64,000 nucleotides of DNA from an uncultured Clostridia bacterium. GTDB lineage: Bacteria > Bacillota > Clostridia > Oscillospirales > CAG-272. The DNA lies in assembly GCA_948466345.1 (NCBI GenBank), contig CAOKAC010000003.1, forward strand, positions 140,812-204,811, given 5' to 3'. A program made the translations under genes and the position numbers. The notes beneath the pieces are model-generated. The model did not search any database. It was not told where the DNA came from and saw nothing but the letters and a program-made list of their open reading frames with translations. Positions within the stretch are counted from its first letter, which is position 1; each line of letters opens with the position of its first letter. Below, piece after piece: positions 1-38,654 of the stretch.

Positions 1-132
1 TCCAGCTCCGGTTCTTTCTGTCTATCGGCGGCTACGATTGACGGAACGCCGGTTGGGGGTCGTGCACCGCAGATTCTGGAAGTCCTTCGGCGGGATTTAA
101 TGGCCGACTGGCTTCAGGCAACAAACGGATAA
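1..132 (+). CDS. 3' end of an upstream gene (partial, function unknown)
   Basis: Frame +1 is open from the window edge to TAA at 130-132 (...LEVLRRDLMADWLQATNG*). Too short to assign. Confidence 0.3.
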   Translation, partial: SSSGSFCLSAATIDGTPVGGRAPQILEVLRRDLMADWLQATNG

Positions 133-156: not shown

Positions 157-1221
157 ATGACGCAGGAAGAACTTACGCTGGAAAACTTGGGGAGTAGCCT
201 GGATGATTTGGCAAATCTGGATCCACGGGGATATGGCGTGTGTAAAATACTTTATCGGGGCGCTCGGGCATTTCAGGGTGAGGCGCTGACGATGAATGCG
301 GCGAAAAAATTGTGCGCTGCGTTGCGGCAGGATGATGTTGTATATTTAATCAGTGGATTTGTGCTGCGTCCTTATAATAAGGCTGAGACAGATGGTATTA
401 TCAGCACGATGCTGTTGGCCCGTTGTCTGATCCAGGGGTTCGGCGTGCGTCCTGTGGTGATTTGCCCGGATGAGTGCATGAATACGGTAGAAGGACTGGC
501 TTCTATATTAGGCTTCCATCTGACCGATTTGCCCGATCTGTTTTCTATTCCATTAACAATGGCAGCCGTATCTTTTCCGAAGGACACAGCAGCCGCTGAG
601 GATTTTTCGAATACAGTTATTGATACTACCGGTATGCCAAGGGCGGTCGTTTCTATAGAAGCGCCTGGGGCCAATGCCCAAGGCGTGTACCATAATGCTA
701 TCGGTAAATCGGTAACTAATTTGGAGGCAAAAACAGACATACTGTGGGAGAAGCTGTGCAATGCAGGCGTGTTGAATATCGCGATTGGAGACTTGGGCAA
801 TGAAATTGGTATGGGCGCTATTGCAGAGCATATTGAAAAATATATTCCTTATGCTGGAACAGGCGCGTGCTCATGTGGATGTAGCGATGGAATCTTAGCA
901 AAGACAAAAACAGACAACTTAATCACAGCTACTGTTTCAGATTGGGGCTGTTATGGCATGATAGCTGCCATTGCATATTTAAAGAACAATCTTGAACTGT
1001 TTCATGACGGTGCGATGCAGGAGCGTGCTATGCGTAAAGCCGCAGAATGCGGCGTGATCGATATGTATGGATGGGCTGTTCCGGCTATTGATGGAATCGG
1101 GATTGAAATGACCTGCGCGATTGTAGAAGCAATGCGAGGTTGTATAGAGTATACGCTGCGGCTGCGTGAAACCTGTAGCACTTGGTTTGAAAAAACCATT
1201 GAAAAGGGATTCTTTGCATAA
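157..1221 (+). CDS. DUF4392-like (glutamate-cyclase-domain) protein
   Basis: 354-aa ORF, first gene of a tightly packed six-gene operon. Motifs LDPRGYG and IGDLGNEIGMG recall the DUF4392 / D-glutamate-cyclase-like family (recalled from memory, not searched). Confidence 0.5.
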   Translation: MTQEELTLENLGSSLDDLANLDPRGYGVCKILYRGARAFQGEALTMNAAKKLCAALRQDDVVYLISGFVLRPYNKAETDGIISTMLLARCLIQGFGVRPVVICPDECMNTVEGLASILGFHLTDLPDLFSIPLTMAAVSFPKDTAAAEDFSNTVIDTTGMPRAVVSIEAPGANAQGVYHNAIGKSVTNLEAKTDILWEKLCNAGVLNIAIGDLGNEIGMGAIAEHIEKYIPYAGTGACSCGCSDGILAKTKTDNLITATVSDWGCYGMIAAIAYLKNNLELFHDGAMQERAMRKAAECGVIDMYGWAVPAIDGIGIEMTCAIVEAMRGCIEYTLRLRETCSTWFEKTIEKGFFA

Positions 1222-1240
1222 GGAAAAGGGAGGCTTTTGT

Positions 1241-1963
1241 ATGGGATATAAACTGCTTACCTGCGGTGAGTGCGCTGTTACAGTGGAGTTTTCCAGGGAG
1301 ATGGATCCGCACGCCGGAAAAGCGGCGGTAGGGCTTGCGGGGGAGCTCAGACGGCGGGAAACGACAGGAATTTATGAGATTATCCCTACATATCGTTCTG
1401 TGACAATATGCTTTGATCCCCTTACCATTTCTTACAAAGCAGTAAAGCGATTGATATCCAACTGTATGCGCTGCAGGCACACAGAAGCGAGGGAAAAAAA
1501 CGTTCGGCGTTTTTTTCTCCCTGTTTGCTATGGCGGATCATATGGGATGGATTTGAATGATATTGCACAGCGAACCGGTTTGGATCCTCGCGAGGTGGTT
1601 CGGCGGCATATCAGCCGCGAGTATCCGATTAATATGATCGGCTTTTTGCCTGGATTTCCCTATTTGACCGGGATGGATTCCACGATTGCAGTCCCAAGAT
1701 TAGAAAATCCAAGAGAAAAAATTCCTGCTGGATCTGTGGGAATCGGCGGGGAACAGACTGGAGTGTATCCGATTGATTCCCCTGGCGGCTGGCGCCTTAT
1801 CGGCAGAACCCCTGTACGTCTATATGATCCTGACCGAACTCCCCCGGTATTGTATAATGCCGGTGATTGGATTCGTTTTTATCCTGTAAGCGAACAGGAA
1901 TACTTTAGAATAGAAGCAGCAGTGGCTGCGGGTACATATACAGTGGAGACGGAGGAAGTGTAA
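1241..1963 (+). CDS. pxpB: 5-oxoprolinase subunit B (PxpB/KipI, allophanate hydrolase subunit 1 family)
   Basis: ATG 1241 follows GGGAGG; the longer 1166 start would overlap the upstream gene. GFLPGFPYL and SPGGWRLIGRTP motifs are typical of KipI/PxpB. The stop overlaps the pxpC start (TAATG). Confidence 0.85.
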   Translation: MGYKLLTCGECAVTVEFSREMDPHAGKAAVGLAGELRRRETTGIYEIIPTYRSVTICFDPLTISYKAVKRLISNCMRCRHTEAREKNVRRFFLPVCYGGSYGMDLNDIAQRTGLDPREVVRRHISREYPINMIGFLPGFPYLTGMDSTIAVPRLENPREKIPAGSVGIGGEQTGVYPIDSPGGWRLIGRTPVRLYDPDRTPPVLYNAGDWIRFYPVSEQEYFRIEAAVAAGTYTVETEEV

Positions 1964-2910
1964 TGTGTATACGGATAGAAGTACCCGGCCCGCTGACTAC
2001 AGTGCAGGATCTGGGCAGAGTCGGACATATGCACAGCGGATTCCAGCAGTCTGGCGCTATGGACTGGTATGCTGCATCCCTTGCAAATATTTTGTGCGGC
2101 AATGATGTAAACAGTGCGGTATTGGAGATGACCCTGGGTGGAATTACCTGCCGCTTCTTGGAACCGGTGGTCTTTGCCTTATGCGGTGCGGATATGTCTG
2201 CTGTATTAGATGGAGCAGCCGTTCCCATGCAGCAGGCAGTGCTGGCGCCTGCCGGAAGTCTTTTGAAAATGGGAATAGCACAGACTGGATGCCGTACATA
2301 TATGGCGGTGTCGGGCGGGCTGGACGTACCCCTTATTATGGGGAGTCGTTCTACGAACCTGCGTTGCAGGCTCGGCGGCTTTGCAGGCCGAAGCCTGCAA
2401 GCGGGCGATGTACTGTCGGTATTGCCTAGCGTGTCTTTGGTAAGCGGCTCTTGTGTCCCTTGTGAAAAGCCTGCCCATGGCGAGGCTTTGATTCGTGCTG
2501 TTCCTGGTCCGCAAAACGACTATTTTACGAAAAATGGTATACAAACATTTTTTACTGAAGCTTATACTGTAACGCCTGCATCGGATCGGATGGGAATGAA
2601 GCTGTCCGGCCCTGCACCGCAGGCGGTGTCTGGCACGGACATTATCTCGGATGGCATTGCTTTGGGCAGCGTGCAGATACCTGCCGGCGGTCAGCCGATT
2701 ATTTTGCTTTCCGACCGCCAGACAGTCGGGGGATATGCTAAGATTGCTACGGTGATAAAAGCCGATCTGCCAAGATTGGCCCAACTCCGGCCAGGAGATA
2801 CGATCCGATTTGTAAAAACTGGCAGAAAAGAGGCGCTGTCCGCTTTGAATAAAATGCGGGAGCGTTTGACAGACATCCAAGCACAGATACAAATGCAAAG
2901 AAAGGTATAG
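1963..2910 (+). CDS. pxpC: 5-oxoprolinase subunit C (PxpC/KipA, allophanate hydrolase subunit 2 family)
   Basis: 315 aa. [10 protein letters not shown] near the N-terminus and SDRMGMKL / [14 protein letters not shown] motifs are typical of KipA/PxpC. Translationally coupled to pxpB. Confidence 0.85.
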
Positions 2911-2917
2911 CCGAAAT

Positions 2918-3703
2918 ATGAATGATATACACGCCACACCAGCACAGGTACGGGAAAAGATTCGTCAGGGGATTATTACTGGTCAGACCGCAGGTATGTG
3001 TAACGGATATGCACAGGCAAATTTGTGTGTGCTTCCTCGGGAATATGCTTATGACTTTTTGCTGTTTGCCCAGCGGAATCCTGCTCCATGTCCTATTTTG
3101 GAGGTCAGTGATCCTGGAGAACGGCTGCTGTATACGATTGCAAAGAATGCGGACATTGCAACGGATTTTCCCAAATATCGAATTTACATAGACGGTGTAC
3201 TGAAAGAGGAAACGACCGACGCGTCTTCCTTTTGGAGAGAAGACCTTGTTTCCTTTTTAATCGGTTGTTCCTTCTCTTTTGAAGGAGAGCTGTTGGCTGC
3301 CGGAATTCCCGTGCGACATATTGAAGAGGGAAGGAATGTGCCTATGTTTCTTACAAATATTCCTTGCCGGCCGGCGGGTATCTTCCATGGCAATATGGTT
3401 GTGTCGATGCGTCCTATGCCGGCAGACCAGGTTGTGCGCGCAGTAAATGCTACAGCCGCTATGCCGAAGGTACACGGCGCTCCTGTGCATATTGGGGATC
3501 CTGCAGGAATCGGTATTGCTGATATTCACCGACCAGATTTTGGTGACGCAGTAACCGTATATCCTGGCGAGGTACCGGTGTTCTGGCCCTGTGGTGTAAC
3601 ACCGCAAGCCGCTGTGATGGAGGCAAAACCATCCTTTGCGATTACCCATGCGCCGGGACATATGCTGATCACAGATATTCCCAATGCGGCGTTGAAATAT
3701 TGA
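2918..3703 (+). CDS. DUF1445 putative hydro-lyase (YcsI-like, D-glutamate-cyclase-like)
   Basis: 261 aa. N-terminal [26 protein letters not shown] and C-terminal [12 protein letters not shown] are characteristic of UPF0317/DUF1445. A DUF1445 gene (ycsI) likewise lies within the B. subtilis ycsF-kipI-kipA cluster. Confidence 0.75.
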
Positions 3704-3716
3704 ATCGAGGTGTCTG

Positions 3717-4490
3717 ATGAGAAAAAAAGTAGATTTAAACTGTGACTTGGGCGAGGGCTTTGGCACGTATCACATGCATATGGATGGCGACATTATCCGC
3801 TGTATCACATCCGCTAATATCGCGTGCGGATATCACGCTTCCGATCCGCTTATCATGGATCAAACCGTACAGATGGCCCTCCGCGCCGGTGTAGGTCTTG
3901 GCGCGCATCCTGGATATCCCGATCTGATGGGATTTGGCCGCCGCAATCTGCAAGCGTCTCCTGCCGAGGTACAGGCATATGTAACCTATCAGTTGGGAGC
4001 GCTTCATGCCTTTGCCTTGTCACATGGCGGGCGCTTATCCCATGTAAAGCCTCATGGAGCTATGTACAATATGGCGGCAAAGGAGCCATCCCTTGCTAAA
4101 GCTATTTGCGCCGCAGTATACCAATTTGACAAAAGCCTTATTTTACTTGGCCTTTCTGGTAGTTGTATGCTGGAAGAGGCAGAGAAAATGGGGCTCCCTG
4201 TCGCTAGAGAAGTATTTGCAGATCGAGCATATGAGTCGGACGGCACGCTGGTCGCCCGTACAAAATCTGGCGCCATGATTGAAGATGAAGATTTAGCAGT
4301 GGAGCGGGTGGTACGCATGGTGCAGGATGGATGGGTGCAGGCTATCGACGGAACAGACATAGCGATTTGCGCAGATTCCATATGTGTTCATGGTGACGGC
4401 CCCAAAGCCCTGCTATTTACGCAGAAAATCCGAATGGCCTTGGAAAACGCAGGTATACAAATAGCGCCTCTTGCAGAAGTGGTAGGGTAA
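3717..4490 (+). CDS. pxpA: 5-oxoprolinase subunit A (PxpA, LamB/YcsF family)
   Basis: MRKKVDLNCDLGEGFG N-terminus and KPHGAMYN motif are diagnostic of LamB/YcsF. Sits in the operon with pxpB/pxpC. Confidence 0.9.
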   Translation: MRKKVDLNCDLGEGFGTYHMHMDGDIIRCITSANIACGYHASDPLIMDQTVQMALRAGVGLGAHPGYPDLMGFGRRNLQASPAEVQAYVTYQLGALHAFALSHGGRLSHVKPHGAMYNMAAKEPSLAKAICAAVYQFDKSLILLGLSGSCMLEEAEKMGLPVAREVFADRAYESDGTLVARTKSGAMIEDEDLAVERVVRMVQDGWVQAIDGTDIAICADSICVHGDGPKALLFTQKIRMALENAGIQIAPLAEVVG

Positions 4491-4514
4491 AACATTCAAT
4501 TTTGGAGTGACGCA

Positions 4515-5669
4515 ATGGGATATCAACGAATTTGTGCAAAAATTGACTTGAACGCGGTGGAAAAAAATGTTGCAGGAGTGCGCGCACGTATTCCCGGCAG
4601 CACAAAAATTATGGCGGTGATTAAAGCCGATGCTTATGGCCATGGCGCAGTTTTTCTTTCCGAATTTTTAAAAAATCAAGTAGACTGGTTTGGTGTTGCC
4701 ACGGCAGACGAGGCGTTGGAACTCCGAAATCATGGATGTGAAAAACCGATTCTTATTTTGGGATATGTCCATCCGGAAGAATATCCGATGCTTGTGGGAA
4801 AAAATATAACTACAACGATTTTTCGGTATGCAGATGCAAAATCATTGTCAGATGTGGCGCTGCTGCAAGAAAAGAAAGCGGAAGTGCATATCAAAATCGA
4901 TACGGGTATGGGGCGGATCGGCTATCCGGTCAGTCGGGAGACCGCAGAGGAAATTCAGAAAATTTCCCATCTTCCAGGACTTTGCATTACCGGTATATTT
5001 AGTCATTTCTATGGAGCTGATGCGAAGGATAAAACAGCGGTGCTCGCCCAGCGTGACCGTTTTGACCGTATGATTAATATGCTGGATAAAATAGGCGTGG
5101 ATATCCCTCTGAAGCATTTAAACAATAGCGCCGGTACTATGGAACTGGATAAACACTACGATATGGTGCGTATGGGCATCATGCTGTACGGCATCTATCC
5201 GTCCGATGAAATGGATCTATCCTATCCTTTATATCCTGCAATGGAACTTATTTCCCATATTTCCCATGTGAAAACGATCCAAGCGGGAGAGGGTGTCAGT
5301 TATGGACACATCTATGTAGCCAGTCATACTGAACGGCTAGCGACCATTCCTGTTGGGTACGCAGACGGGTATCCTAGAAGCCTATCCAATAAAGGCTATG
5401 TCTTGATACGCGGCAAACGCTGTCCAATTCGTGGCAGGGTTTGTATGGACCAGATGATGGTGGATGTCTCGGACATAGAGAATGTGCAGGTAGGCGAGTC
5501 GGTGGTTTTGATGGGCTGCGATGGAGAAGAGCAGCTTACTGCAGCACAAGTGGGAGATACTGCCGGGTCCTTCAGTTATGAGTTTGTCAGCGGTATCGGA
5601 ATGCGGGTTCCACGAGTGTATTATTATAATGGTAAAGAAGTAAAATTGATAAATCGACTGCAAAATTAA
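4515..5669 (+). CDS. alr: alanine racemase
   Basis: 384 aa. PLP-lysine motif AVIKADAYGHG plus a C-terminal beta-domain (VSYG, GYADGYPR). Starts 25 nt after pxpA, so probably co-transcribed. Confidence 0.9.
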   Translation: MGYQRICAKIDLNAVEKNVAGVRARIPGSTKIMAVIKADAYGHGAVFLSEFLKNQVDWFGVATADEALELRNHGCEKPILILGYVHPEEYPMLVGKNITTTIFRYADAKSLSDVALLQEKKAEVHIKIDTGMGRIGYPVSRETAEEIQKISHLPGLCITGIFSHFYGADAKDKTAVLAQRDRFDRMINMLDKIGVDIPLKHLNNSAGTMELDKHYDMVRMGIMLYGIYPSDEMDLSYPLYPAMELISHISHVKTIQAGEGVSYGHIYVASHTERLATIPVGYADGYPRSLSNKGYVLIRGKRCPIRGRVCMDQMMVDVSDIENVQVGESVVLMGCDGEEQLTAAQVGDTAGSFSYEFVSGIGMRVPRVYYYNGKEVKLINRLQN

Positions 5670-5741: not shown

Positions 5742-5770
5742 TTGACATTACCCGTCAAACAGTATATAAT
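5742..5770 (+). promoter_or_regulatory. sigma-A-type promoter of the surface-protein gene
   Basis: TTGACA (5742-5747), 17-nt spacer, TATAAT (5765-5770), about 40 nt upstream of ATG 5809. Confidence 0.7.
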
Positions 5771-5808: not shown

Positions 5809-7941
5809 ATGAAAAAGCTGTTTTCTATTGTTTTAATGGCAGCTCTGCTTGTTGCTTGCATCACACCGGCGCTCTATTCCTCCGCAGCGGACGTTGCTCC
5901 GTCCTTTGTGGTTGCAGAGAACACCGATTTTGATGAAAACGCAGGCACGGTCGACGTAACTTTTGGTATTGCAAACAACCCAGGCATTTCCGAATTAAAG
6001 GTGCTGGTGTACTACCTTGAATCTGAATTGTCTATTGCTAAGTTTTCGAATGGAACTGTTTTTGATGCTGCTGATAACGTGCAGGGAGCAACGCTAAAGT
6101 CTGATAACAGAAATATGAAACCATATTTCTCGGCAGAGGAGTTTGGTGATGTTGTCTATAATGTAACCGAGTTTGATGTATATGCTCCGACTATGGACGC
6201 AGACGAAACTGAAAATGGAACATTTCTTAACTTAACTTTCAATTTTGCTGGCGCACATCCTGCAGGTGCAGAATTTACATATGGTATTAAAGTAATGTCT
6301 GCAACTAATGCTGAAGGTGACCCTATTGACTTTGCTGGTAAGCAGGAAGGCAAAGTTACTGCTACTCCTGATCCCTACAAAGATGTTTACGACAACTTTA
6401 CTGTGTTCACTACAGACGGAACTGTGGATGTGGATGCAAAGGAAGTAACTGTAGACCTTCGTCTTGTAAATAACCCTGGTATCAATGCGCTTCGTATTTT
6501 CATTGCTTACGATGAAGCATTGCAGCTGACCACTCTCCAGCCTGTTGACGGTATCTTTACCGGAAGCGAGTTCGAGGTAAGTGAAGATAAGCATGCAGAT
6601 CCTTCTGCAAGCGCATCCGCAAAGAATGCTTTCGCGCATAAGAATATTTCCCTTGATGGAAAAGCTTGCGCTATTATTCTGGCAACAGCAGACAAAGAAG
6701 AAAACAGAACTGCCGGCGGCGTTTTGGCTCGTCTTACCTTTGCATTGCCCGAAGATATGAAGCAGGGCGATAGTTTCCCCATTGACTTCTGCTGGACTGG
6801 TACAGATATAGTACAGCTTGATATGGACAACATGGATGAGTATGGCAAGCCTGTACTGAAATTCTTGGAACCTGACAATCCTACCTGCGCTGTTGGAACC
6901 AAGGTTTGTGAGCATCCGAATGTAGTTCTCACAGAAACAACAGCTCCTTCTTGTACAGCAACAGGCGTAAAGAGCGGTGAGTGTCCGGATTGCGGTCAAA
7001 CTGTTGAAGAAGTTATTCCTATGCTTCCGCATACACCTTCTGCTGATACCAAAGTAACACCTCCTACTTGTACTGAAGCGGGTAAGATTACAACTGTATG
7101 TGAAGTTTGTGGCAACGATATTGAAACAGTAGATGATCCTGATAACGCTGCACTGGGTCATGATGAAGTAAATGTAAGAGAAAATATTACTAAACCCGCA
7201 ACTTGTGCAGAAGCAGGTCTTAAAGATATTATTTGCGGTAGATGTGATGTAGTTCTGCAAAAAGATGTAGAAATTACTAAATTGCCTCATACAGAAGCAA
7301 CTAGAGTTGTAGATCCTACTTGTACAGAAGGTGGTAAGATTGTTACCTACTGCTCTGTTTGTAACGAAATCATTAATGAAGAGGTAGATCCTGATCATGC
7401 GGACGCTTTGGGTCATACTGCAGGCGCACCTGTAGTGACCAAGCCTGCAACCTGCAAAGAAGAAGGTTCTCAGGATATCTACTGCACAGTATGCGAAGAA
7501 AAAATTGCAACAGAAACTATTGAGATGCTGGAGCATGATGTAGTTACAGTAGTAGTGGATCCTACTTGTGTTGATGCAGGTAAAATTGTTACGAAATGTT
7601 CTCTTTGTGGTGATATATTCAGTGAAGAAGAGGATGTAGATCATCCCGCAACCGGTGTGCACACTCCTGGTGAACCTGAGATTGTTGAGCCGACAGCTAC
7701 AGAAGAAGGCACTAAGACAATTAAGTGCTCCGTTTGTGGCGAAGTGCTCTCCACTGAAAAGATCCCCGCAAAAGGCGTTGATTCTAGTGATGCAGGCACA
7801 ACAAAAGCTCCTGACAAGAATACAGGCAAAAATCCTGTGACTGGCGATAACATGGTATATGTAATCGTTATTGCTGCTGTTGCAGTTATTGGTTGCAGTG
7901 CTGTAGTTGTTATTAGAAAGAAGAAAGCTTCTGAAAGATAA
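5809..7941 (+). CDS. secreted cell-surface protein: two cohesin-like domains, seven His/Cys3 mini-repeats, NPxTG-type sorting signal
   Basis: Signal peptide MKKLFSIVLMAALLVACITPALYSSAA. Two cohesin-like beta-sandwich regions (aa ~30-185 and ~195-355, e.g. VTVDLRLVNNPGINALRIFIAYD). A Cys-rich repeat block. C-terminus is KNPVTGD, then a hydrophobic helix, then RKKKASER. Confidence 0.8.
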   Translation: MKKLFSIVLMAALLVACITPALYSSAADVAPSFVVAENTDFDENAGTVDVTFGIANNPGISELKVLVYYLESELSIAKFSNGTVFDAADNVQGATLKSDNRNMKPYFSAEEFGDVVYNVTEFDVYAPTMDADETENGTFLNLTFNFAGAHPAGAEFTYGIKVMSATNAEGDPIDFAGKQEGKVTATPDPYKDVYDNFTVFTTDGTVDVDAKEVTVDLRLVNNPGINALRIFIAYDEALQLTTLQPVDGIFTGSEFEVSEDKHADPSASASAKNAFAHKNISLDGKACAIILATADKEENRTAGGVLARLTFALPEDMKQGDSFPIDFCWTGTDIVQLDMDNMDEYGKPVLKFLEPDNPTCAVGTKVCEHPNVVLTETTAPSCTATGVKSGECPDCGQTVEEVIPMLPHTPSADTKVTPPTCTEAGKITTVCEVCGNDIETVDDPDNAALGHDEVNVRENITKPATCAEAGLKDIICGRCDVVLQKDVEITKLPHTEATRVVDPTCTEGGKIVTYCSVCNEIINEEVDPDHADALGHTAGAPVVTKPATCKEEGSQDIYCTVCEEKIATETIEMLEHDVVTVVVDPTCVDAGKIVTKCSLCGDIFSEEEDVDHPATGVHTPGEPEIVEPTATEEGTKTIKCSVCGEVLSTEKIPAKGVDSSDAGTTKAPDKNTGKNPVTGDNMVYVIVIAAVAVIGCSAVVVIRKKKASER
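6907..7773 (+). repeat. seven tandem ~40-45-aa coding repeats, H-x(9-13)-C-x(3-4)-G-x(5-6)-C-x2-C
   Basis: Repeats read directly, e.g. HTPSADTKVTPPTCTEAGKITTVCEVCG, HTEATRVVDPTCTEGGKIVTYCSVCN, HDVVTVVVDPTCVDAGKIVTKCSLCG. The last unit has lost its first Cys (EPTATEEGTKTIKCSVCG). Similarity is also visible at DNA level. Confidence 0.8.
7831..7938 (+). other. C-terminal cell-wall sorting-signal-like region (NPVTGD + TM + basic tail)
   Basis: NPVTGD is followed by NMVYVIVIAAVAVIGCSAVVVI and RKKKASER. This tripartite layout is typical of sortase substrates, with an NPxTG variant motif. Confidence 0.55.
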
Positions 7942-8793: not shown

Positions 8794-9324
8794 TTATCTA
8801 AAAATATGATGCGCACGTTTTTCCACGGCAAACAACAGAATGAATCCAAGGCCAACGCCAGCAATTAATTCTCCAATTCCAATTGTTAGTGTTAAAAACC
8901 AGATTGCCGAAGTATCGCCATATACGAAACGAAGCACCCACGGCACGATAAGTATGTTAGCCAGTAAATTAGGGAAGGGGAGAGACAATTTAAGAAAAAA
9001 GGCTTTCTTGCTCTTTCCAGTACTTTTTTTGATACATTTGCCGATCCAGTAGGCACCCAATGCACCCAAAAGCGTTGCCACAGATCCGAAAAGGATGTCC
9101 CAAGGCGCACACCCAGTTACCAAATTGGCTATAGCGCATCCAACGAATAGCCCTGGTATCGCTGCTGGTGTAAAGAGAGGAAGTACACATAAAGCTTCTG
9201 AAATCCGTACTTGGATCACACCAGATGCAAGCCCTGCCATAGCCGATACTAAGGTGAGAGCCACATAGACAGCCGCGATAAGACCTGCTTGCACAATAAA
9301 GAATAGCGTCTTTTTGTTTTTCAT
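8794..9324 (-). CDS. queT: queuosine-precursor transporter QueT (ECF S-component-like)
   Basis: Start at MKNKKTLFF (ATG 9324). About 5 TM helices. IQVRISEAL motif is typical of QueT. Preceded by a preQ1 riboswitch. Confidence 0.75.
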   Translation of the reverse strand: MKNKKTLFFIVQAGLIAAVYVALTLVSAMAGLASGVIQVRISEALCVLPLFTPAAIPGLFVGCAIANLVTGCAPWDILFGSVATLLGALGAYWIGKCIKKSTGKSKKAFFLKLSLPFPNLLANILIVPWVLRFVYGDTSAIWFLTLTIGIGELIAGVGLGFILLFAVEKRAHHIFR

Positions 9325-9334
9325 ATTTAGTTTT

Positions 9335-9376
9335 CTCCGTAGTTTTGTTTTTTGTGAGGATTTTGCGAACTCACAG
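9335..9376 (-). promoter_or_regulatory. preQ1-I riboswitch
   Basis: Minus-strand RNA: CUGUGAG-UUCGCAAAAUC-CUCAC-AAAAAACAAAACUA-CGGAG. P1 is GUGAG/CUCAC, the loop starts UUCGC, and an A-rich tail ends in CUA directly before the SD (GGAG), 10 nt from the ATG. Confidence 0.7.
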
Positions 9377-9381
9377 GATAT

Positions 9382-9410
9382 AGTATAACACAAATATTGA
9401 CACTTGTAAA
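9382..9410 (-). promoter_or_regulatory. sigma-A-type promoter of the preQ1-queT unit
   Basis: On the minus strand: TTTACA (9410-9405), 17-nt spacer, TATACT (9387-9382). Confidence 0.65.
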
Positions 9411-9411
9411 G

Positions 9412-10119
9412 CTATTTCATAGCTTCTATAAATTGAATACCGCCAAAGTCAGATAACGGTCCGTCCCAGAGCTCAACAATAGGGATTTTTTTCTTGCGGC
9501 AAAATTCTAGCAAAGCATGCCCTGTGCTGCAGCGCTTAGCCTGACCATATATATAAACGGTGTCTTTCCAGACCCCACCGCAGCCGCCGATAAAGCCTGT
9601 ATTATACCCCGAAAGCCGTATGTCCCCGCCCGGAACTTTATATATGGGGATCCCGATTCGTTCACCTGCACGACAAATTGATGGATCTGCCGTCACTAGC
9701 GTTCCGCCTATATATAAAGTAGAACATCCTGCATACCCTTGCTTTGTATCTGCTGCCAAATAGGGCAGCAATTCTGGCACAAGGGAAGAGCGGCGGGCGA
9801 TTACTTGCTGTCTATCAGGTAAAACCAGCGCATTTACCCCCACATCTAAAGGATATAGTGCTGCACGCGGTGCAGCTGTACAAATTAAATTCAGCTTGCA
9901 CAGTTCAAGAATTCTATCAATTACTTGATGTGCCAAGCAATAATATTCCCGATGGCAAAATAATTTGCCATCTAGAATGACAATTAACATATCTGGATGA
10001 TGTGCAACTGGTGGGGCTAGCTGGGGATCGGCTGGTAGTCTCAATATTTCAAAATTTTTAGAAAGTTTTTTCGCTGCAGCTGCGGGACAATTTTCACTAA
10101 TAATTGCGAGAACGGACAT
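9412..10119 (-). CDS. hypothetical protein (possibly a DUF6873-type amidinotransferase-fold protein)
   Basis: Start at MSVLAII (ATG 10119) behind GAGGTG. 235 aa, soluble, Cys in FIGGCGGVW near the C-terminal third. The family call is recollection only. Confidence 0.4.
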   Translation of the reverse strand: MSVLAIISENCPAAAAKKLSKNFEILRLPADPQLAPPVAHHPDMLIVILDGKLFCHREYYCLAHQVIDRILELCKLNLICTAAPRAALYPLDVGVNALVLPDRQQVIARRSSLVPELLPYLAADTKQGYAGCSTLYIGGTLVTADPSICRAGERIGIPIYKVPGGDIRLSGYNTGFIGGCGGVWKDTVYIYGQAKRCSTGHALLEFCRKKKIPIVELWDGPLSDFGGIQFIEAMK

Positions 10120-12355: not shown

Positions 12356-13813
12356 ATGAAAAAAACACTTGCTTTTCTTGCATTGATACTTGTTTTTTCA
12401 ATGCTTTGGCTGGCTGGATGTGATGAAGATAAAAAAAGCAAAGATACTACCCAGACTGAAGAAGAAACTACAGAAGAAACGACAGAAGCAGATACCACGG
12501 AACTAGAAACGACGGAAGCAGAATCTGTGGAGGAACAGACAACTGAAGAAACAGCCAAGGAAACAGATTCTATGGCGGCGGGGACCCCCGATACTTGGGT
12601 CGATACTTCTTGGAGCGACGGAGAACTTTCCGGTGGAGGAGAGCTGTATAATGGTGGGGATCCTTCGGGCGGTAATGAGAATACACCAGGAAATGGATTT
12701 ACTGGAAATGGGAGCAGCGGCGAAAATATTGGACCGGTTGAAACGCCTACAGGTAAAGTTTTAATTCATACATATTCTGACAGGCCGGTAGCTAGGGATG
12801 AGGATAATTCTACCACGGTGCCTTATTTGCCAATGATTAGCAGCACAGTTTTGCCTTCTATGAATGAAATGTATAATGTGCCAAGATTGCTAATGAAGGA
12901 TATAAAGCCCGGGATGGTTTGTGAGAATGTAATTATTGGTTATGACGATTATATGTTTTATGAAGATACATTAAATGATTTTATTGGATCAGGATTTTTA
13001 ACAGATACTGTGTATAACCGTGCAGTTAAGACTTTGATAGAACGCAACAATTGGGCTGAGTCTCACGGAAAGAAATTTTATTTTGTGATTGCTCCTAATA
13101 AAAATACCGTATACCCAGACTACATGCCGGAAGGGTATACTATGGCGTCTTATAGAAGATACGATCAGTTTGTAGAAATGCTGCAAAGCGCAGGAATTAC
13201 AGCGGTGGATCTGCGCGGGACTATGGCTGCAGCAGTGCGGGAGGTGCCAGAACGGAATTTGTATTATAAATATGATACCCATTGGAACAACCACGCTGGT
13301 TACTTTGCTTATCGAGCCGCAATGGATATGATACGTGCAGATTTCCCCAATGTAGTGATTCATGATAAGAGCGAATATCAAATCAATTATTGCGAAACCT
13401 ATATGAAGGACATGGCGTACTATTTGGGATATTACAGTCGTCTAAAAGATTACGGCCCGGTTTATACACTGAAAAGCGGCAGAACTGCACAGCTAGCAAA
13501 TTATACGCCTAAAAGCGCATGGGGACAGTTTGCTTTTGCTTATGAGGGGCCGGATGGATATAGCGATAGGCTGTACTATTTCCAGTATTTGAATAATTAC
13601 AATCAAAGTGCGCCGAATGCATATATTATGCGTGACTCTTATAGTATCGCAATGGTACCTTTTTTGAAAGATAGCTTTTACAAAAGCACCTATAACTGGA
13701 CCTTTAGCTTTAGTGAAAGTGAGATTTTAAAGGCGGATGCCGATGTTATTATGGTAATTGTGGCTGAACGGAATTTGCGCAGCTATGTCAATGGTGAGGC
13801 CGTAGCAAACTAA
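12356..13813 (+). CDS. lipoprotein with AlgJ/AlgX-like (DHHW-type) SGNH acyltransferase/esterase domain
   Basis: Lipobox LWLAGCDE, a T/E-rich low-complexity linker, then FYFVIAPNKNTVYPDYMP and YYKYDTHWNNHAGY motifs typical of AlgJ/AlgX-N-like O-acetyltransferases. Confidence 0.6.
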   Translation: MKKTLAFLALILVFSMLWLAGCDEDKKSKDTTQTEEETTEETTEADTTELETTEAESVEEQTTEETAKETDSMAAGTPDTWVDTSWSDGELSGGGELYNGGDPSGGNENTPGNGFTGNGSSGENIGPVETPTGKVLIHTYSDRPVARDEDNSTTVPYLPMISSTVLPSMNEMYNVPRLLMKDIKPGMVCENVIIGYDDYMFYEDTLNDFIGSGFLTDTVYNRAVKTLIERNNWAESHGKKFYFVIAPNKNTVYPDYMPEGYTMASYRRYDQFVEMLQSAGITAVDLRGTMAAAVREVPERNLYYKYDTHWNNHAGYFAYRAAMDMIRADFPNVVIHDKSEYQINYCETYMKDMAYYLGYYSRLKDYGPVYTLKSGRTAQLANYTPKSAWGQFAFAYEGPDGYSDRLYYFQYLNNYNQSAPNAYIMRDSYSIAMVPFLKDSFYKSTYNWTFSFSESEILKADADVIMVIVAERNLRSYVNGEAVAN

Positions 13814-13872
13814 TGATTCATGTCAAAGGCATATTTGTCTGGGCATAAAGACCAATGAAAAGAGGAAATAAT

Positions 13873-14439
13873 ATGAAAAAAATCAACTTGTTTCTTGTGC
13901 TGTCTCTGCTTGTTTGCTGCTTTGCAGGACTTGTAGGATGTGAAAAAACAGATGTGCCTAACACACCGGAGAAAAACATTAAGGTCACAGGTGAACTGTC
14001 CGATATCGTTTCGGCAGTGGATGAGAAAATTTCTTTTGAAAAAAATGTCAGTGAAGTGATTTACAAAGCAGAAGACGATAGCGAAATGATGATGCTTCTG
14101 TATGGTGTAGTGGATATACCTGCGGCAGATCATTTAATAGATTATGTAATAACAAGTCCCGCAAATACCCATCACACCTTTGCTGTGTTTGTTTTTGATG
14201 ATGAAATGACTGAAGACGATTTTACGCAGGTACGCGAAACGGTTAACGAAACTTATATGCAAACCCGTGCGTCCTCCTTACAAATGTATTTTCCGGAAGA
14301 ATATGCGACCATGACCTGGGCTATAGACAATCCGGATCTGGTGTGGAGACAGTACGACAATGCGCTGGTACTGATTATCAATGGAGACGAAGAACCAACC
14401 GGAGCTTTTGAAGCTTTTGAAGCTGCTGCACTGAAGTAA
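13873..14439 (+). CDS. putative lipoprotein, unknown function
   Basis: ATG 13873 behind GAGGA. Signal peptide with lipobox (LLVCCFAGLVGCEK). Confidence 0.55.
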   Translation: MKKINLFLVLSLLVCCFAGLVGCEKTDVPNTPEKNIKVTGELSDIVSAVDEKISFEKNVSEVIYKAEDDSEMMMLLYGVVDIPAADHLIDYVITSPANTHHTFAVFVFDDEMTEDDFTQVRETVNETYMQTRASSLQMYFPEEYATMTWAIDNPDLVWRQYDNALVLIINGDEEPTGAFEAFEAAALK

Positions 14440-14470
14440 ATAAAGGCTGCATATATTATGCAGCCTTTAT
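14440..14470. terminator. bidirectional intrinsic terminator
   Basis: Perfect 14-bp inverted repeat ATAAAGGCTGCATA / TATGCAGCCTTTAT between convergent genes. Confidence 0.75.
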
Positions 14471-15388
14471 TTATATTTCACCGCACAGACGGGCAGTGAG
14501 AAATTTATAAAATTTTTCTTTATCCTTCCAAGAAACGGCACAGTCCATCATTTTACCACGCATAGGATCAATGAGTGAGAGCCCTTTGTCACTTACATAT
14601 ACAGGGAGTTTTTGATAGTTCAGCAGGTCTTTTGAAATAAGTGCATATACACCTACCGTATCAAAGAGTCCAGATGTAGGTCCATGATAATTATAGTTCA
14701 TATTTTTGAACCAGATATCTGTGTTTTCCACAAGTGCGGCCATCAAAGGATCGTTTGCAGCTGTCTCACGGATATGATCAAAATACTCCGTTTCTAAAAT
14801 CGTGAACCCGGAAACATCCAGGGGAATCAGTTCTACTTCCCAGTCATTTTGTTCCACACCAATCCGATATGCGTCAATACTGACGTTAATGTTGCTTTCT
14901 GTTCCCAGAGGGGGATACCAACCTTTCACAGCTCCGTTGTACAGGTTAGCGCCAAGAAATACAAGACGGCTTTTTTCCACGATGCGGGGTTCTTTTTGTA
15001 TTGCCGCAGCCAGATTTGTGCAGGGACCGATAGCCAGCACTGTAATTTTTTCGTCAGAGTGCATGATAAGATCTACCATGGCTGCAACACCGTCTTCATG
15101 AAGATTGGGATAGGAGGACAGCTCGTAATCTTCTACCCAATCTAGAATGTTGCTGCATCCTTCCAGACTGCCGGTTCCGTGTACACCCACACCAACCGGA
15201 ACATCCTCTCTGCCGGCAATCTGCAGCATTTTTGCTGCCAGCTTTGCCTGATATGTAGTGTCGAAGGCTGCGGAGACAACCATACGCAAATCAATTTCCG
15301 GACTGCGCAGGATCATAGCAAGCGCCCAGGTATCATCGATATCACAGCCGATATCTGTGTCTAATATAAGGGGAACAGGTTTCTTCAT
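14471..15388 (-). CDS. nucleoside hydrolase (inosine/uridine-preferring family)
   Basis: N-terminal ILDTDIGCDIDDTWALAMIL (DxDxxxDD Ca-binding motif), about 305 aa. Confidence 0.85.
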   Translation of the reverse strand: MKKPVPLILDTDIGCDIDDTWALAMILRSPEIDLRMVVSAAFDTTYQAKLAAKMLQIAGREDVPVGVGVHGTGSLEGCSNILDWVEDYELSSYPNLHEDGVAAMVDLIMHSDEKITVLAIGPCTNLAAAIQKEPRIVEKSRLVFLGANLYNGAVKGWYPPLGTESNINVSIDAYRIGVEQNDWEVELIPLDVSGFTILETEYFDHIRETAANDPLMAALVENTDIWFKNMNYNYHGPTSGLFDTVGVYALISKDLLNYQKLPVYVSDKGLSLIDPMRGKMMDCAVSWKDKEKFYKFLTARLCGEI

Positions 15389-15514
15389 AATAGGATCCTT
15401 TCCATTGCAAATAATACAATACGCTTATTCTATCATATTTTATCCAAATTGTATATGGATTTTTTTCATTTTTCCGTATACGCATAAATTTCTTAAAAAA
15501 ATATAAAAAATCCG

Positions 15515-15543
15515 TTGACAAGATTGTTTTTGGATGCTATAAT
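15515..15543 (+). promoter_or_regulatory. sigma-A-type promoter of the T-box leader
   Basis: TTGACA (15515-15520), 17-nt spacer, TATAAT (15538-15543). Confidence 0.75.
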
Positions 15544-15552
15544 ACTAAAAAA

Positions 15553-15808
15553 GCGTGGAAGGGGACCCCCGTTCCAATGCGCAAGATGCAGAGAGACGCT
15601 GGTTGGTGAAAAGCGTTGCTTGTGTGGAACTACTCGCCCCTGAGCTGTCGGCTGAAATTTTTTTAGTAGGCCAGACCGGAACCCTCCGTTATCTTAGGGA
15701 AGGGCATGTAGTGCCTAATGAGTGGACGCATGATTTGCGTCAATAAGAGTGGTACCGCGGAAGCTATGCTTTCGTCTCTTGCTTTAGTGCAGAGACGAAA
15801 GCTTTTTT
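15553..15808 (+). promoter_or_regulatory. T-box riboswitch leader (probable Leu, CUC specifier)
   Basis: K-turn GCGUGGAAGGGG / CCCCUGAGC. AG bulge AGAGAG (15590-15595). Distal loop GGUUGGUGAAA. Specifier loop 3' side UA-CUC-G (CUC 15633-15635). T-box sequence AAUAAGAGUGGUACCGCGG (15743-15760). Terminator GCTTTCGTCTCT / AGAGACGAAAGC + TTTTTT (15768-15808). Confidence 0.85.
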
Positions 15809-15883
15809 ATTTGCATTTTTCCAGGTAATCGTCTCTGATCAATACTTTGAAAAAATTATTGAGGAGAAAGGTAGAATGATTTT

Positions 15884-18415
15884 ATGAAACTCGCATTTTC
15901 TACATTAGGTTGTCCGAATTTTAGCTGGCCTGATATTTACGCTATGGCGAAAGATGTCGGCTTTAGCGGCATTGAACTCAGAGGTCTTGGCGATGAAATT
16001 TTTTCTGTTCACGCGGAGCCCTTTAGTGAAGAAAATATTGAGAAGACCAAAGAAAAACTGAAAAAATTACATTTGGAAATTCCGTGTCTTTCTTCCGGCT
16101 GCGCTCTGCGCTTTGCAGAACATTTGGAAGAAAACGTGCAAGAGATTGGTGAATATATTCGTCTGGCGAAACAGCTTGGAACTCCCTATATCCGTATTTT
16201 AGGAGACCGCACTGCAGAAGTTACAACAGATTTTGATGATACTGTAGTGGTAGAAGCTTTGCGGAGGCTGGCGCCGCAGGCGGAAGCTGCGGGGGTCATG
16301 CTGCTTGTGGAGACAAACGGTGTATATACAGATACACAGCGTTTATGCTCCGTGCTCAACGCGGTAGAAAGTGATGCGGTGGGAGCTCTTTGGGATATGC
16401 ATCATCCTTATCGATTTGGCGGAGAAAAGCCACAGCAGACGATTCAAAATCTTGGCGCGTATATTAAATATACCCATATCAAAGATTCTGTTATGAACGG
16501 CGAAATAGTAGAGTATCGAATGATGGGAGAAGGGAATCTTCCTATTTCTGACTTTCTGGCGGCGCTCCGTTCTATCAATTATGAGGGGTACATTTCTCTG
16601 GAGTGGCTCAAACGCTATATGCCCGATTTGGAGTCCTCCGGAATCGTATTCCCGCATTTTGTAAACTACATGCAGCAGTACATCGGTTCTTCCGACATGG
16701 CGGGCAGATTGCAGACCAGTGCTAGAGGCGATGGAAAATATGTATGGCCCAAAGAAAGACTGATTGATCTGACTTTTCCCCAGGTGCTGGATCGTATGTG
16801 TGACGAGTTCCCGAATCAGTATGCATTCCGATATACCACCTGCGATTATACCAGAACATACAGCCAGTTCCGAGAAGACGTGGATAATTTTGCCCGGTCC
16901 CTTATTGGTATGGGTGTCAAACAGGGAGATCATGTAGCAATTTGGGCGACAAACGTACCTGCGTGGTATATTACCTTTTGGGCGACAGTGAAAATCGGCG
17001 CTGTGCTTGTAACAGTTAATACCGCGTATAAGATCCATGAACTGGAATATTTGCTTCGTCAATCAGATACACATACTCTTGTTATGGTGGACAGCTATAA
17101 AGACTCCGATTATGTGAAAATCATCAACGAATTGTGTCCGGAACTGCAGACCGCAAAGAAGGGAGCCCCCCTGCGGATTAAGAAATTGCCATTCTTACGC
17201 AATATTATTACCTGTGAGTCTGACCAGAAGGGATGTTGGAATTGGGAAGAGGCTTTAGCGGCAGGAGAGAGTGTGCCTGTCAGCGAAGTATATCGTCGTG
17301 CGTCTATGATCAGCAAGCATGATGTATGTAATATGCAGTATACCTCCGGTACAACCGGGTTTCCCAAGGGCGTCATGCTTACCCATTATAATGTGGTAAA
17401 TAACGGCAAAGCAATTGGAGACTGTATGGATTTATCTACAGCAGACCGGATGATGATTCAGGTGCCAATGTTCCACTGTTTCGGTATGGTGTTGGCTATG
17501 ACCGCATCTATGACGCATGGTGTCACTATGAGTCCGATTCCTGCATTTTCTCCCAGCAAGGGACTGGCCTGTATTACAAAGGAGAAAATCACTTGTTTTC
17601 ATGGTGTGCCTACTATGTTTATCGCTATGCTTGGGCATGCTGACTTTGAAAAAACGGATTTCAGTCACATGCGTACCGGCATTATGGCCGGCAGCCCTTG
17701 TCCCATTAAGGTAATGGAGCAGGTAATCGAAAAAATGCATATGAGCGAGATCTGTATCACATATGGGCAGACCGAGGCGTCTCCGGCAACAACGATGTCT
17801 AAAATTACAGATTCTATTGAAACCAGAGTAAACACGGTGGGAAGTCCTATCTTTGGCGTAGAATGCAAAATTGTAGATCCGGAAACGGGTGAAGAGCTTC
17901 CCGACAATGTGGACGGTGAATTTGTGGCCAGAGGCTATAATATCATGAAAGGATATTATAAAATGCCTGAAGCTACTGCTGCTGCAATTGATGCAGACGG
18001 CTGGCTCCATTCCGGGGATATGCTGCGTCGTCTGCCGGATGGGAACTACAAAGTAACCGGCCGCTTAAAGGATATGATTATTCGCGGCGGAGAAAATATT
18101 TATCCAAAAGAAATTGAAGATTTTATTTATACCCACCCGAAGGTAAACGATGTGCAGGTGATTGGTGTTCCCGACAAGGATTACGGAGAAGAGATCATGG
18201 CCTGCGTCATTCTGAAGGAGGGTGAGACATCTACAGAAGAAGAGATCAAGGCATATGTACGGGATCATATGGCAAAGCACAAAACGCCCCGATATGTGGC
18301 TTTTGTAGATGCGTTCCCCATGAATGCGGCGGGTAAAATCCTTAAGTATAAAATGCGCGAGGATGCGGTGAAGCTGCTGAATCTTACAGATGCTAGCAAG
18401 ATTGTAACGGCATAA
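15884..18415 (+). CDS. fusion protein: xylose-isomerase-like TIM-barrel (AP endonuclease 2 family) domain + AMP-forming acyl-CoA synthetase
   Basis: Single 843-aa ORF. aa 1-~270 (MKLAFSTLGCPNFSW...YISLEW) look like sugar-phosphate isomerase/epimerase TIM barrels. aa ~290-843 carry adenylate-forming motifs (MQYTSGTTGFPKGVMLTH, YGQTE, GWLHSGD, IIRGGENIYPKEIE). Confidence 0.85.
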   Translation: MKLAFSTLGCPNFSWPDIYAMAKDVGFSGIELRGLGDEIFSVHAEPFSEENIEKTKEKLKKLHLEIPCLSSGCALRFAEHLEENVQEIGEYIRLAKQLGTPYIRILGDRTAEVTTDFDDTVVVEALRRLAPQAEAAGVMLLVETNGVYTDTQRLCSVLNAVESDAVGALWDMHHPYRFGGEKPQQTIQNLGAYIKYTHIKDSVMNGEIVEYRMMGEGNLPISDFLAALRSINYEGYISLEWLKRYMPDLESSGIVFPHFVNYMQQYIGSSDMAGRLQTSARGDGKYVWPKERLIDLTFPQVLDRMCDEFPNQYAFRYTTCDYTRTYSQFREDVDNFARSLIGMGVKQGDHVAIWATNVPAWYITFWATVKIGAVLVTVNTAYKIHELEYLLRQSDTHTLVMVDSYKDSDYVKIINELCPELQTAKKGAPLRIKKLPFLRNIITCESDQKGCWNWEEALAAGESVPVSEVYRRASMISKHDVCNMQYTSGTTGFPKGVMLTHYNVVNNGKAIGDCMDLSTADRMMIQVPMFHCFGMVLAMTASMTHGVTMSPIPAFSPSKGLACITKEKITCFHGVPTMFIAMLGHADFEKTDFSHMRTGIMAGSPCPIKVMEQVIEKMHMSEICITYGQTEASPATTMSKITDSIETRVNTVGSPIFGVECKIVDPETGEELPDNVDGEFVARGYNIMKGYYKMPEATAAAIDADGWLHSGDMLRRLPDGNYKVTGRLKDMIIRGGENIYPKEIEDFIYTHPKVNDVQVIGVPDKDYGEEIMACVILKEGETSTEEEIKAYVRDHMAKHKTPRYVAFVDAFPMNAAGKILKYKMREDAVKLLNLTDASKIVTA

Positions 18416-28569: not shown

Positions 28570-28635
28570 ATGCTGTTCTTTCCAAAACATGCCCGACGGA
28601 CGCATTCGAGTCCATCGGGCATGTTTTTATAATTT

Positions 28636-38333: not shown

Positions 38334-38654
38334 TCAGATGTCCGCCTCTATAAAATCCGGGAAAGCTTCTTCTAAAAGCTGAAATCCTCGTAAAATCGCC
38401 ATAGTATTGTCCAAAATCAAGGCGTTATCGTCCGGCAGTTCAAAATCCATTCGTACATATCCTGCAGAAAAATCTTCTCTGTAACGCTCAATTTTTCCTT
38501 CCTCGTATGCTTCACGCAGCAGGGCACGCAGTGTGTAACATAAAATCGACACCGCAGAGCATAAAATATCCTGTCCGGCAGAGGCATATTCTGTATGTCC
38601 AACACATTCAAATAAGTACGTGTCATAATACGTGTCAAAAGAAATTTTGGTCAT
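38334..38654 (-). CDS. Prp/YsxB-like cysteine protease (phage-associated)
   Basis: 106 aa. GHTEYASAGQDILCSAVSIL aligns with the Prp catalytic His/Cys block (GHAG...GQDIVCAAIS in B. subtilis YsxB). ATGA overlap with the portal stop. Confidence 0.7.
   Translation of the reverse strand: MTKISFDTYYDTYLFECVGHTEYASAGQDILCSAVSILCYTLRALLREAYEEGKIERYREDFSAGYVRMDFELPDDNALILDNTMAILRGFQLLEEAFPDFIEADI

Follow-up and report, generated by a model that had tools for sequence, protein, structure and literature searches.

Why would a bacterium gather into one transcription unit both halves of the animal D-glutamate cyclase, the three subunits of a 5-oxoprolinase, and an alanine racemase? The question is raised by a 64,000-nucleotide (nt) stretch of contig CAOKAC010000003.1 from an uncultured Clostridia bacterium, which we refer to as the window. 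D-Glutamate (D-Glu) is present in every peptidoglycan, and 5-oxo-D-proline is its lactam. A preliminary description of the window had placed six closely packed genes at 157–5669 (a DUF4392-like gene, pxpB, pxpC, a DUF1445 gene, pxpA, and alr) and had read them as a dedicated D-amino-acid route. All six open reading frames (ORFs) were confirmed on the forward strand at these positions, and the case for such a route is strengthened because the first gene of the unit proves to be dat, for a D-amino-acid transaminase homolog that links D-Glu to the alanine racemase (Alr). Substrates, direction, and stereospecificity are read here from the genes present, the active-site residues of their products, the layout of the operon, and its conservation; on that footing we propose, with moderate confidence, that this seven-gene operon manages the D-Glu/5-oxoproline (pyroglutamate) node in Clostridia and works in a salvage or catabolic direction.

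The operon has the order dat–DUF4392–pxpB–pxpC–DUF1445–pxpA–alr. Its features are as follows (window coordinates, here and below on the forward strand unless stated otherwise):

1–132, forward strand: 3' end of dat, comprising the last 43 codons and the stop, with the same translation as the C terminus of the product of 9134–9976 in locus L001

157–1221, forward strand: long-form DUF4392 protein (GLUCM-like_C) of 354 amino acids (PF14336, E = 3e-81, whole profile covered)

1241–1963, forward strand: pxpB, KipI-like, with carboxyltransferase subdomains C and D (PF02682, E = 2e-71)

1963–2910, forward strand: pxpC, KipA-like, with carboxyltransferase subdomains A and B (PF02626, E = 9e-97)

2918–3703, forward strand: DUF1445/D-Glu_cyclase-domain protein (PF07286, E = 2e-71)

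3717–4490, forward strand: pxpA, LamB/YcsF lactam-utilization family (PF03746, E = 5e-101)

4515–5669, forward strand: alr, alanine racemase dependent on pyridoxal phosphate (PLP), the last gene (Ala_racemase_N and Ala_racemase_C)

5742–5770, forward strand: consensus sigma-70 promoter of the next, unrelated gene (TTGACA-17-TATAAT, 12 of 12 matches)

The domain calls of the preliminary description thus hold for all six genes, that of DUF4392 at 157–1221 by Pfam and the others by Pfam and NCBIfam, as does the close packing: from DUF4392 to alr the junctions measure 19, −1, 7, 13, and 24 nt, with pxpC overlapping pxpB by one base (TAATG). A GGAGG-like ribosome-binding site lies 6 to 10 nt 5' of each ATG at every junction, including a GGGAGG before the pxpB ATG at 1241. 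The partial gene at 1–132, earlier suspected of belonging to the same unit, does belong to it, being the 3' end of dat at a distance of 24 nt from DUF4392. The unit begins 5' of the window, with dat only partly inside, and its upstream part was reconstructed from contigs whose DUF4392 protein is identical and which match all seven cassette proteins at 100% identity by tblastn. There, a promoter-like TTTACA-17-TAAAAT is found ≈90 nt before the dat start, and 5' of dat a terminator with an 11-bp stem and a T-run closes the preceding lipoprotein gene; an upstream PotABCD-like ABC system is set off from the operon by a terminator. The spacer 3' of alr is AT-rich and 139 nt long, and the only terminator candidate in it is a weak AT-rich hairpin (z = −0.97). 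Because the perfect promoter at 5742–5770 precedes the next gene, we place the end of the unit at alr. An Rfam scan of locus L001 (8800–15,700) for RNA elements that might regulate the operon gave no match at E ≤ 1. The terminator scan also flagged a 13-bp A/T-rich hairpin inside the pxpB coding sequence (1491–1519, forward strand), which probably arises by chance from the codons that spell EKNVRRFFL. Across its 64 kb, the window holds no murI, second alr, second pxpABC, biotin carboxyl carrier protein (BCCP) gene, or biotin carboxylase gene.

The two ends of the operon encode the enzymes that define its D-amino-acid character. The complete dat product is a class IV aminotransferase of 280 amino acids (PF01063) whose best NCBIfam match, TIGR01121 for D-amino-acid transaminase (DAAT), scores below the cut-off (219.6 versus 277.45 bits) and outscores the branched-chain and aminodeoxychorismate-lyase models by a wide margin. 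Its closest relatives in the PDB are the Bacillus DAAT structures 3daa/1daa (E = 2e-46), in which Y31, R98, H100, K145, E177, and L201 of 3daa are matched by Y33, R100, H102, K144, E176, and L200 of Dat; these active-site residues are at least 97% conserved among 76 orthologs. In the Bacillus YM-1 DAAT numbering, we take Lys145 and Glu177 to be catalytic and Tyr31, Arg98, and His100 to form the carboxylate trap. By its textbook reaction, D-Glu + pyruvate = 2-oxoglutarate + D-Ala, Dat connects D-Glu with the racemase encoded at the opposite end of the operon. Alr passes TIGR00492 (388 bits, cut-off 168), stays below the cut-offs of the VanT serine-racemase and DadX exception models, and is closest in the PDB to the Thermoanaerobacter-type Alr1 4y2w (E = 7e-95). 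Both its PLP lysine (K37, in AVIKADAYGHG) and its catalytic tyrosine (Y263, in VSYG) are present and conserved in orthologs, and the enzyme would make or consume D-Ala, the co-substrate of Dat.

Between these ends lie homologs of the N-terminal (DUF1445) and C-terminal (DUF4392) domains of animal D-glutamate cyclase, which, as the preliminary description had stated, combines the two (PMC5339696, PMC5132392). The animal enzyme turns free D-Glu into 5-oxo-D-proline, in the cyclizing direction (PMC5339696), and our literature search returned no report of which domain performs which part of the reaction. The DUF1445 protein passes NF003969, "putative hydro-lyase" (424 bits, cut-off 324), matches PDB entry 3db9 (Agrobacterium Atu3911) with an E value of 8e-100, and has 105 of its 261 positions conserved at 97% or more in 66 cassette orthologs. 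For the DUF4392 protein, an AlphaFold2 model (predicted local distance difference test score 96.3) has a single fold relative in the PDB, the archaeal protein TON_0340 (template modeling score 0.87), whose crystal structures show six acidic residues binding two Mn/Mg ions. These ligands (E59, D61, E115, D157, E161, and D246) correspond to E77, D79, E168, D212, E216, and D312 here, each at least 97% conserved among orthologs. We also considered the annotation of DUF4392 as an Asp/Glu/hydantoin racemase, quoted by Ariyoshi et al., and rejected it, since the model matches no racemase fold in the PDB.

The long-form protein exceeds TON_0340 by 86 residues. An insertion of 10 residues, without counterpart in TON_0340, carries a CxCxC motif (C238, C240, C242). 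All three cysteines are invariant, and ≈94% of 117 long-form representatives share the motif, even at identities as low as 30%; two more cysteines, C29 and C103, are invariant in cassette orthologs alone. The CxCxC motif could provide a third metal site, an Fe–S ligand, or catalytic thiols. The DUF4392 family is small, with 1553 representatives at 50% clustering, and we saw no DUF1445–DUF4392 fusion (≈600 amino acids) among its top 150 representatives.

The remaining three genes encode a predicted 5-oxoprolinase of the PxpABC type. PxpB passes TIGR00370 (190.5 bits, cut-off 145.55), and PxpA passes NF003814 (371.6 bits, cut-off 226), with PH0986 (E = 4e-89) and Escherichia coli YbgL (1xw8, E = 5e-70) as its PDB matches. 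PxpC is closest to YbgK (5dud, E = 3e-57) and passes the broader TIGR00724, "5-oxoprolinase/urea amidolyase family" (310 bits, cut-off 230), but falls below the PxpC equivalog NF045499 (260 bits, cut-off 500). The preliminary description had set the D-amino-acid route against repair of L-5-oxoproline; that opposition goes too far, since PxpB and PxpA pass curated thresholds and may have the canonical L-activity. We take Bacillus subtilis YcsI to be a DUF1445 member and ycsI to be the same gene as pxpI, an identity that the papers do not state. The earlier placement of ycsI within the B. subtilis cluster agrees with its position downstream of ycsG in one operon (PMC10448178), and a Clostridioides difficile preprint gives the name pxpI to a gene in the B. 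subtilis kip region.

The arrangement is not peculiar to the window but is kept by many Clostridia from gut and soil. A DUF4392 profile scan of one genome per species (GTDB representatives) gave at least 560 stretches with a relative, and we analyzed the best 80 loci (53–92% identity), locating the cassette proteins by tblastn with seven queries. These loci come from Clostridium sensu stricto, Oscillospiraceae, Acutalibacteraceae, Faecousia, Intestinibacillus, and Lachnospiraceae, and the cassette is found in well over forty Clostridial species, including the cultivable Clostridium tyrobutyricum, Clostridium beijerinckii, and Clostridium neonatale. Dat lies directly 5' of DUF4392 in 74 of the 78 loci with room for it, at a median gap of ≈20 nt, making dat–DUF4392 the tightest association in the cassette. 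Genes downstream were counted in the 51 loci with at least 5.5 kb on that side, where DUF1445 is present in 48, PxpA in 46, PxpB and PxpC in 49 each, and Alr in 34; this neighborhood survey finds DUF4392 together with DUF1445 and complete PxpABC in 45. Because the gene set recurs beside DUF4392 orthologs in 80 species-representative genomes, the arrangement is far beyond chance.

Two gene orders occur. In type I, that of the window, the genes run dat–DUF4392–pxpB–pxpC–DUF1445–pxpA–(alr) (30 loci); in type II, found mainly in Clostridium, they run dat–DUF4392–DUF1445–pxpA–(alr)–pxpB–pxpC (15 loci). Reshuffled order with retained content argues for selection on the gene set, and so for functional coupling and not shared ancestry alone. 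The exceptions are informative as well: L057 and L060 have dat–DUF4392–pxpB–pxpC–alr without DUF1445 or pxpA, L025 has dat–DUF4392 alone, and L059 and L018 have dat–DUF4392–DUF1445–alr with no pxp gene, which indicates that the D branch can stand alone.

To see what surrounds the cassette, 584 flanking ORFs of the 80 loci were clustered, and for 73 loci the first two ORFs on the upstream side were searched with Pfam. Recurrent neighbors are an Lrp/AsnC regulator (20 loci), Liv-type ABC transporters (≈10), and Na:alanine symporters (6), along with unrelated ABC-F and O-antigen-ligase genes. Such surroundings speak for the handling of amino acids and not for synthesis of the cell wall. Neither the ORF clustering nor the Pfam search revealed a conserved peptidase, amidase, or peptide or muropeptide transporter flanking the 80 cassettes, and on this ground we reject the origin of the substrate from peptidoglycan fragments that the preliminary description had suggested.

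The type II loci bear on how ring opening may be energized. In nine of them a gene for a 147-amino-acid BCCP-like protein follows pxpB–pxpC, joined in eight of the nine by a gene for a 447-amino-acid biotin carboxylase (L036, at 13,806–17,333, and L012, L023, L026, L028, L034, L042, and L058; L047 has the BCCP gene only). In L036, the four genes from pxpB to the biotin carboxylase gene overlap or lie at most 23 nt apart, and the biotin carboxylase passes the accC model TIGR00514 at 705 bits. Between them, pxpB, pxpC, and the genes for BCCP and biotin carboxylase supply, one by one, the domains that urea carboxylase combines. In a cryo-EM study of 2026, a PxpC homolog is shown to bind the biotin of BCCP (PMC13012033), a hint that Pxp-type lactam opening may be energized via carboxybiotin.

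More distant relatives extend the association of DUF4392 with D-specific PLP enzymes. In a survey of six bacterial long-form relatives at 30 to 44% identity, three adjoin a PLP enzyme of fold type III that resembles most closely the 3-hydroxy-D-aspartate aldolase BhcC (L092, 2144–7569; L095, 6863–9062; L097, 1196–4263; DUF4392 at 30–34% identity). The BhcC-like group belongs to the D-threonine aldolase/D-serine dehydratase-like family, which is D-specific. Two of these three clusters also contain DUF1445, and their other members include RidA, an Nramp gene, a Liv-type ABC transporter, and GntR/CdaR regulators. A further relative sits beside an M20 ArgE/DapE-type deacylase, a dicarboxylate/amino-acid symporter, and RidA, and two of the six lie in unrelated contexts; PxpABC is absent at all six. 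The BhcC-like neighbors support the idea that DUF4392 makes or uses a D-amino acid that is removed by a PLP enzyme. The comparison suggests that long-form DUF4392, often with DUF1445, partners a D-amino-acid-consuming PLP enzyme, which in the window would be Dat.

On our proposal, the lactam 5-oxoproline would be opened to glutamate, Dat would transaminate D-Glu with pyruvate to 2-oxoglutarate and D-Ala, and Alr would turn D-Ala into L-Ala, so that D-Glu or 5-oxo-D-proline would pass its carbon and nitrogen on to central metabolism without glutamate racemase. DUF1445 and DUF4392, the latter as the Mn/Mg-site protein, would interconvert 5-oxo-D-proline and D-Glu in a D-specific manner, and PxpABC would supply ATP-driven lactam opening. 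We assign D-Glu as the central metabolite because four independent links lead to it: the DAAT signature of Dat, the presence of both cyclase domains, the matches to 5-oxoprolinase models, and Alr.

The proposal can be framed in two ways. In the first, PxpABC would stay L-specific and the operon would clear both enantiomers of pyroglutamate, with the cyclase-like pair equilibrating 5-oxo-D-proline with D-Glu under the pull of Dat and Alr; this is supported by the existence of the Pxp-less dat–DUF4392–DUF1445–alr modules and of Pxp-less distant relatives. In the second, PxpABC would work with the cyclase-like pair on the D-lactam and provide the thermodynamic push. This second form is favored because the type I genes are interleaved and translationally coupled, because the pxp/kip region of B. 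subtilis includes ycsI, which we take to be a member of DUF1445, because PxpABC occurs where the PLP enzyme is a reversible transaminase and not an irreversible dehydratase, and because lactam hydrolysis is uphill without ATP. Taken to its full extent, the second form would make the cyclase-like pair and the Pxp proteins a D-stereospecific, energy-driven 5-oxo-D-prolinase and the first bacterial system for 5-oxo-D-proline; in Clostridium its energy would come from the biotin carboxylase and BCCP encoded after pxpBC, through carboxybiotin rather than direct phosphorylation, and the CxCxC DUF4392 family would make D-amino acids from cyclic precursors for D-specific PLP enzymes. We regard this extended scheme as doubtful.

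Several points weigh against a salvage or catabolic role at the D-Glu/5-oxoproline node. Lactam hydrolysis without ATP leaves only ≈3 to 4% glutamate at equilibrium. Since Dat is reversible and hydrolysis is uphill, a route with an L-specific PxpABC would need high substrate or a strong downstream pull; if, conversely, the pair and PxpABC opposed each other on the same enantiomer, they would form a futile cycle. The alr gene is missing from a third of the cassettes, and the operon of the window holds no dedicated transporter gene. PxpABC paralogs of Pseudomonas putida take different lactams (preprint 10.1101/2021.12.09.472016). TON_0340, the sole DUF4392 member that has been assayed alone, behaved as a weak Mn-dependent phosphatase. 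In Thermococcales, the short-form DUF4392 gene has no Dat, Pxp, or DUF1445 gene in its context and is the last gene of a conserved cluster that encodes an Hps–Phi fusion, a 250-amino-acid protein of no assigned family, a HAD hydrolase, and a 59-amino-acid ORF product (L090, 3190–6807; L091, 3215–6798). This sugar-phosphate context fits the phosphatase activity reported for TON_0340. Because it differs from the context here, a Pfam match alone does not prove cyclase function, and the DUF4392 family is functionally heterogeneous. A general pairing of DUF4392 with Dat or Pxp, which we also entertained, is ruled out by the Thermococcales clusters and the two unrelated distant contexts.

Among the alternatives, the one that survives best is anabolic or homeostatic: Alr would make D-Ala, Dat would use it with 2-oxoglutarate to form D-Glu for peptidoglycan, and the pair and PxpABC would recover glutamate that has cyclized. 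Both Dat and Alr are reversible, and some species of Bacillus and Staphylococcus are known to make D-Glu by way of Dat. The absence of a transporter gene noted above is in keeping with such a role, as are the ordinary housekeeping genes that surround the operon in this spore-former and the discovery of PxpABC as a damage-control enzyme for spontaneous 5-oxoproline, as related by papers citing Niehaus 2017. Many cassettes, however, stand beside Lrp/AsnC regulators, Liv-type ABC importers, or alanine symporters, a pattern more typical of catabolic operons, and DUF4392 relatives have plainly catabolic surroundings that include dehydrogenases, RidA, and regulators of the GntR/CdaR/LacI types. We consider D-Glu supply and repair the less likely role, though one that deserves to be kept in mind.

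Two further alternatives change the substrate, and we think each of them improbable. By analogy with the γ-glutamyl cycle, the DUF1445/DUF4392 pair might act as a cyclotransferase on γ-D-glutamyl compounds such as peptidoglycan stem-peptide fragments, poly-γ-D-glutamate, or D-glutamine, releasing 5-oxo-D-proline that PxpABC would reopen with ATP and that Dat and Alr would finish. Such a scheme would avoid a futile cycle and explain why cyclizing and ring-opening activities are co-expressed, and the distant relative beside the M20 deacylase and the dicarboxylate/amino-acid symporter is compatible with it. The window also contains a PGA_cap (CapA-like) gene (27,400–28,605, reverse strand), 22 kb away from the operon and of a family linked to poly-γ-glutamate capsules, which may bear on the source of D-Glu. 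The scheme is purely analogical, however; no peptidase, amidase, or peptide transporter is conserved beside the 80 cassettes, and the animal enzyme uses free D-Glu.

The other alternative, to which we likewise attach little weight, is that the operon handles a different lactam or cyclic D-amino-acid derivative, with a broad-specificity Dat as the outlet. It draws on the differing lactam substrates of the PxpABC paralogs in the preprint cited above, on the scores of PxpC and Dat below their equivalog and TIGR01121 cut-offs, and on the pairing of DUF4392 relatives with enzymes that resemble 3-hydroxy-D-aspartate aldolase and not glutamate enzymes. Set against these, PxpB and PxpA pass curated 5-oxoprolinase models, Dat retains the canonical carboxylate-binding residues, and the animal D-glutamate cyclase, the sole two-domain enzyme assayed, acts on D-Glu. 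Least probable is the linear sequence of the preliminary description, in which DUF1445 and DUF4392 would cyclize D-Glu and PxpABC would reopen the ring to dispose of peptidoglycan-derived D-Glu and D-Ala: the cyclizing direction of the animal enzyme (PMC5339696) and the co-location of all the genes speak for it, but it regenerates D-Glu and burns ATP in a futile cycle that would be sensible only if opening inverted the stereocenter, it leaves Dat, the most conserved partner, without a role, and no peptidoglycan peptidase or muropeptide transporter is conserved near the 80 loci.

Three other regions of the window drew our attention. Directly after the operon, 5809–7941 (forward strand) encodes, from its own perfect sigma-70 promoter at 5742–5770, a 710-amino-acid protein with a signal peptide and a C-terminal membrane anchor; it has no Pfam match and contains about six repeats with paired CxxC motifs in each. 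At 38,651–41,713 (reverse strand), two phage genes, one for the large subunit of a terminase and one for a P22-type portal, stand isolated among housekeeping genes, with a Prp-like peptidase adjoining the portal; they are probably what is left of a prophage, or else a small element of phage origin. Lastly, 44,427–48,904 (reverse strand) contains nadC (QRPTase), nadB (L-aspartate oxidase), a DUF362/4Fe–4S protein gene, and a GHMP kinase gene. Because NadA was not seen at its expected place there, the Fe–S protein may stand in for quinolinate synthase.

Neither this operon nor a D-glutamate cyclase or 5-oxo-D-prolinase from bacteria is described in the literature covered by our full-text search, whose reach did not include Niehaus et al. 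2017, and no bacterial gene is assigned there to 5-oxo-D-proline. The authors of the TON_0340 study had already noted the Rosetta-stone link between DUF1445 and DUF4392 (PMC5132392), and an automated 2025 screen lists zero full-length and six split gut-microbe homologs of GLUCM_HUMAN without considering their neighbors (PMC12547972, Table 1). What we describe is thus a conserved, undescribed combination of known enzyme families, which implies an undescribed bacterial D-Glu/5-oxo-D-proline route. Bacterial annotation still leaves DUF4392 and DUF1445 ("putative hydro-lyase") unnamed, and the operon gives them a testable assignment as the two parts of a D-glutamate cyclase that is coupled with a D-amino-acid transaminase and an alanine racemase. 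It also poses a thermodynamic puzzle, a cyclase co-expressed with an ATP-driven ring opener, the answer to which would show how PxpABC is energized and how stereospecific it is; the puzzle grows sharper in Clostridium, where genes for BCCP and biotin carboxylase come after pxpBC. For gut biology, the route would define D-Glu and pyroglutamate recycling by abundant Clostridia.

How does the operon compare with known systems? The described pxp operons (E. coli pxpABC/ybgJKL, B. subtilis ycsFGI–kipIAR, C. difficile kipOTIA, and Corynebacterium glutamicum pxpTABC) share the same three subunit families, but they have not been reported with Dat, DUF4392, or Alr, and what is reported for C. difficile and C. 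glutamicum is confined to L-5-oxoproline. Their Nramp-type "T" transporter is absent from the cassette here, although Nramp stands beside DUF1445 in B. subtilis and likewise in one of the distant DUF4392-relative clusters; the type II cassette of Clostridium, for its part, adds BCCP and biotin carboxylase. The carboxyltransferase domain of urea carboxylase/urea amidolyase is homologous to PxpB and PxpC, but urea carboxylase has BCCP and biotin carboxylase, for which the cassette of the window has neither gene within 64 kb.

Dat and Alr here have the same canonical catalytic residues as in the Dat and Alr route of Bacillus and Staphylococcus, the difference being that their genes bracket a lactam-handling module in a single operon. 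The γ-glutamyl cycle follows the same logic, in which a cyclizing enzyme (γ-glutamyl cyclotransferase) is joined to an ATP-driven ring opener (ATP-dependent 5-oxoprolinase), yet it uses unrelated protein families and L stereochemistry, and no γ-glutamyl donor is evident in the operon here. The closest counterpart of the cyclase-like pair is animal D-glutamate cyclase itself (DGLUCY/C14orf159, EC 4.2.1.48), which likewise contains PF07286 and PF14336. In animals, these domains are fused, whereas here they are two genes with pxpB and pxpC between them, and the DUF4392 protein bears the CxCxC insertion that the crystallized archaeal member lacks. Compared with the animal system, the genomic partners of the pair suggest that D-Glu is fed or drained here, rather than just excreted as its lactam.

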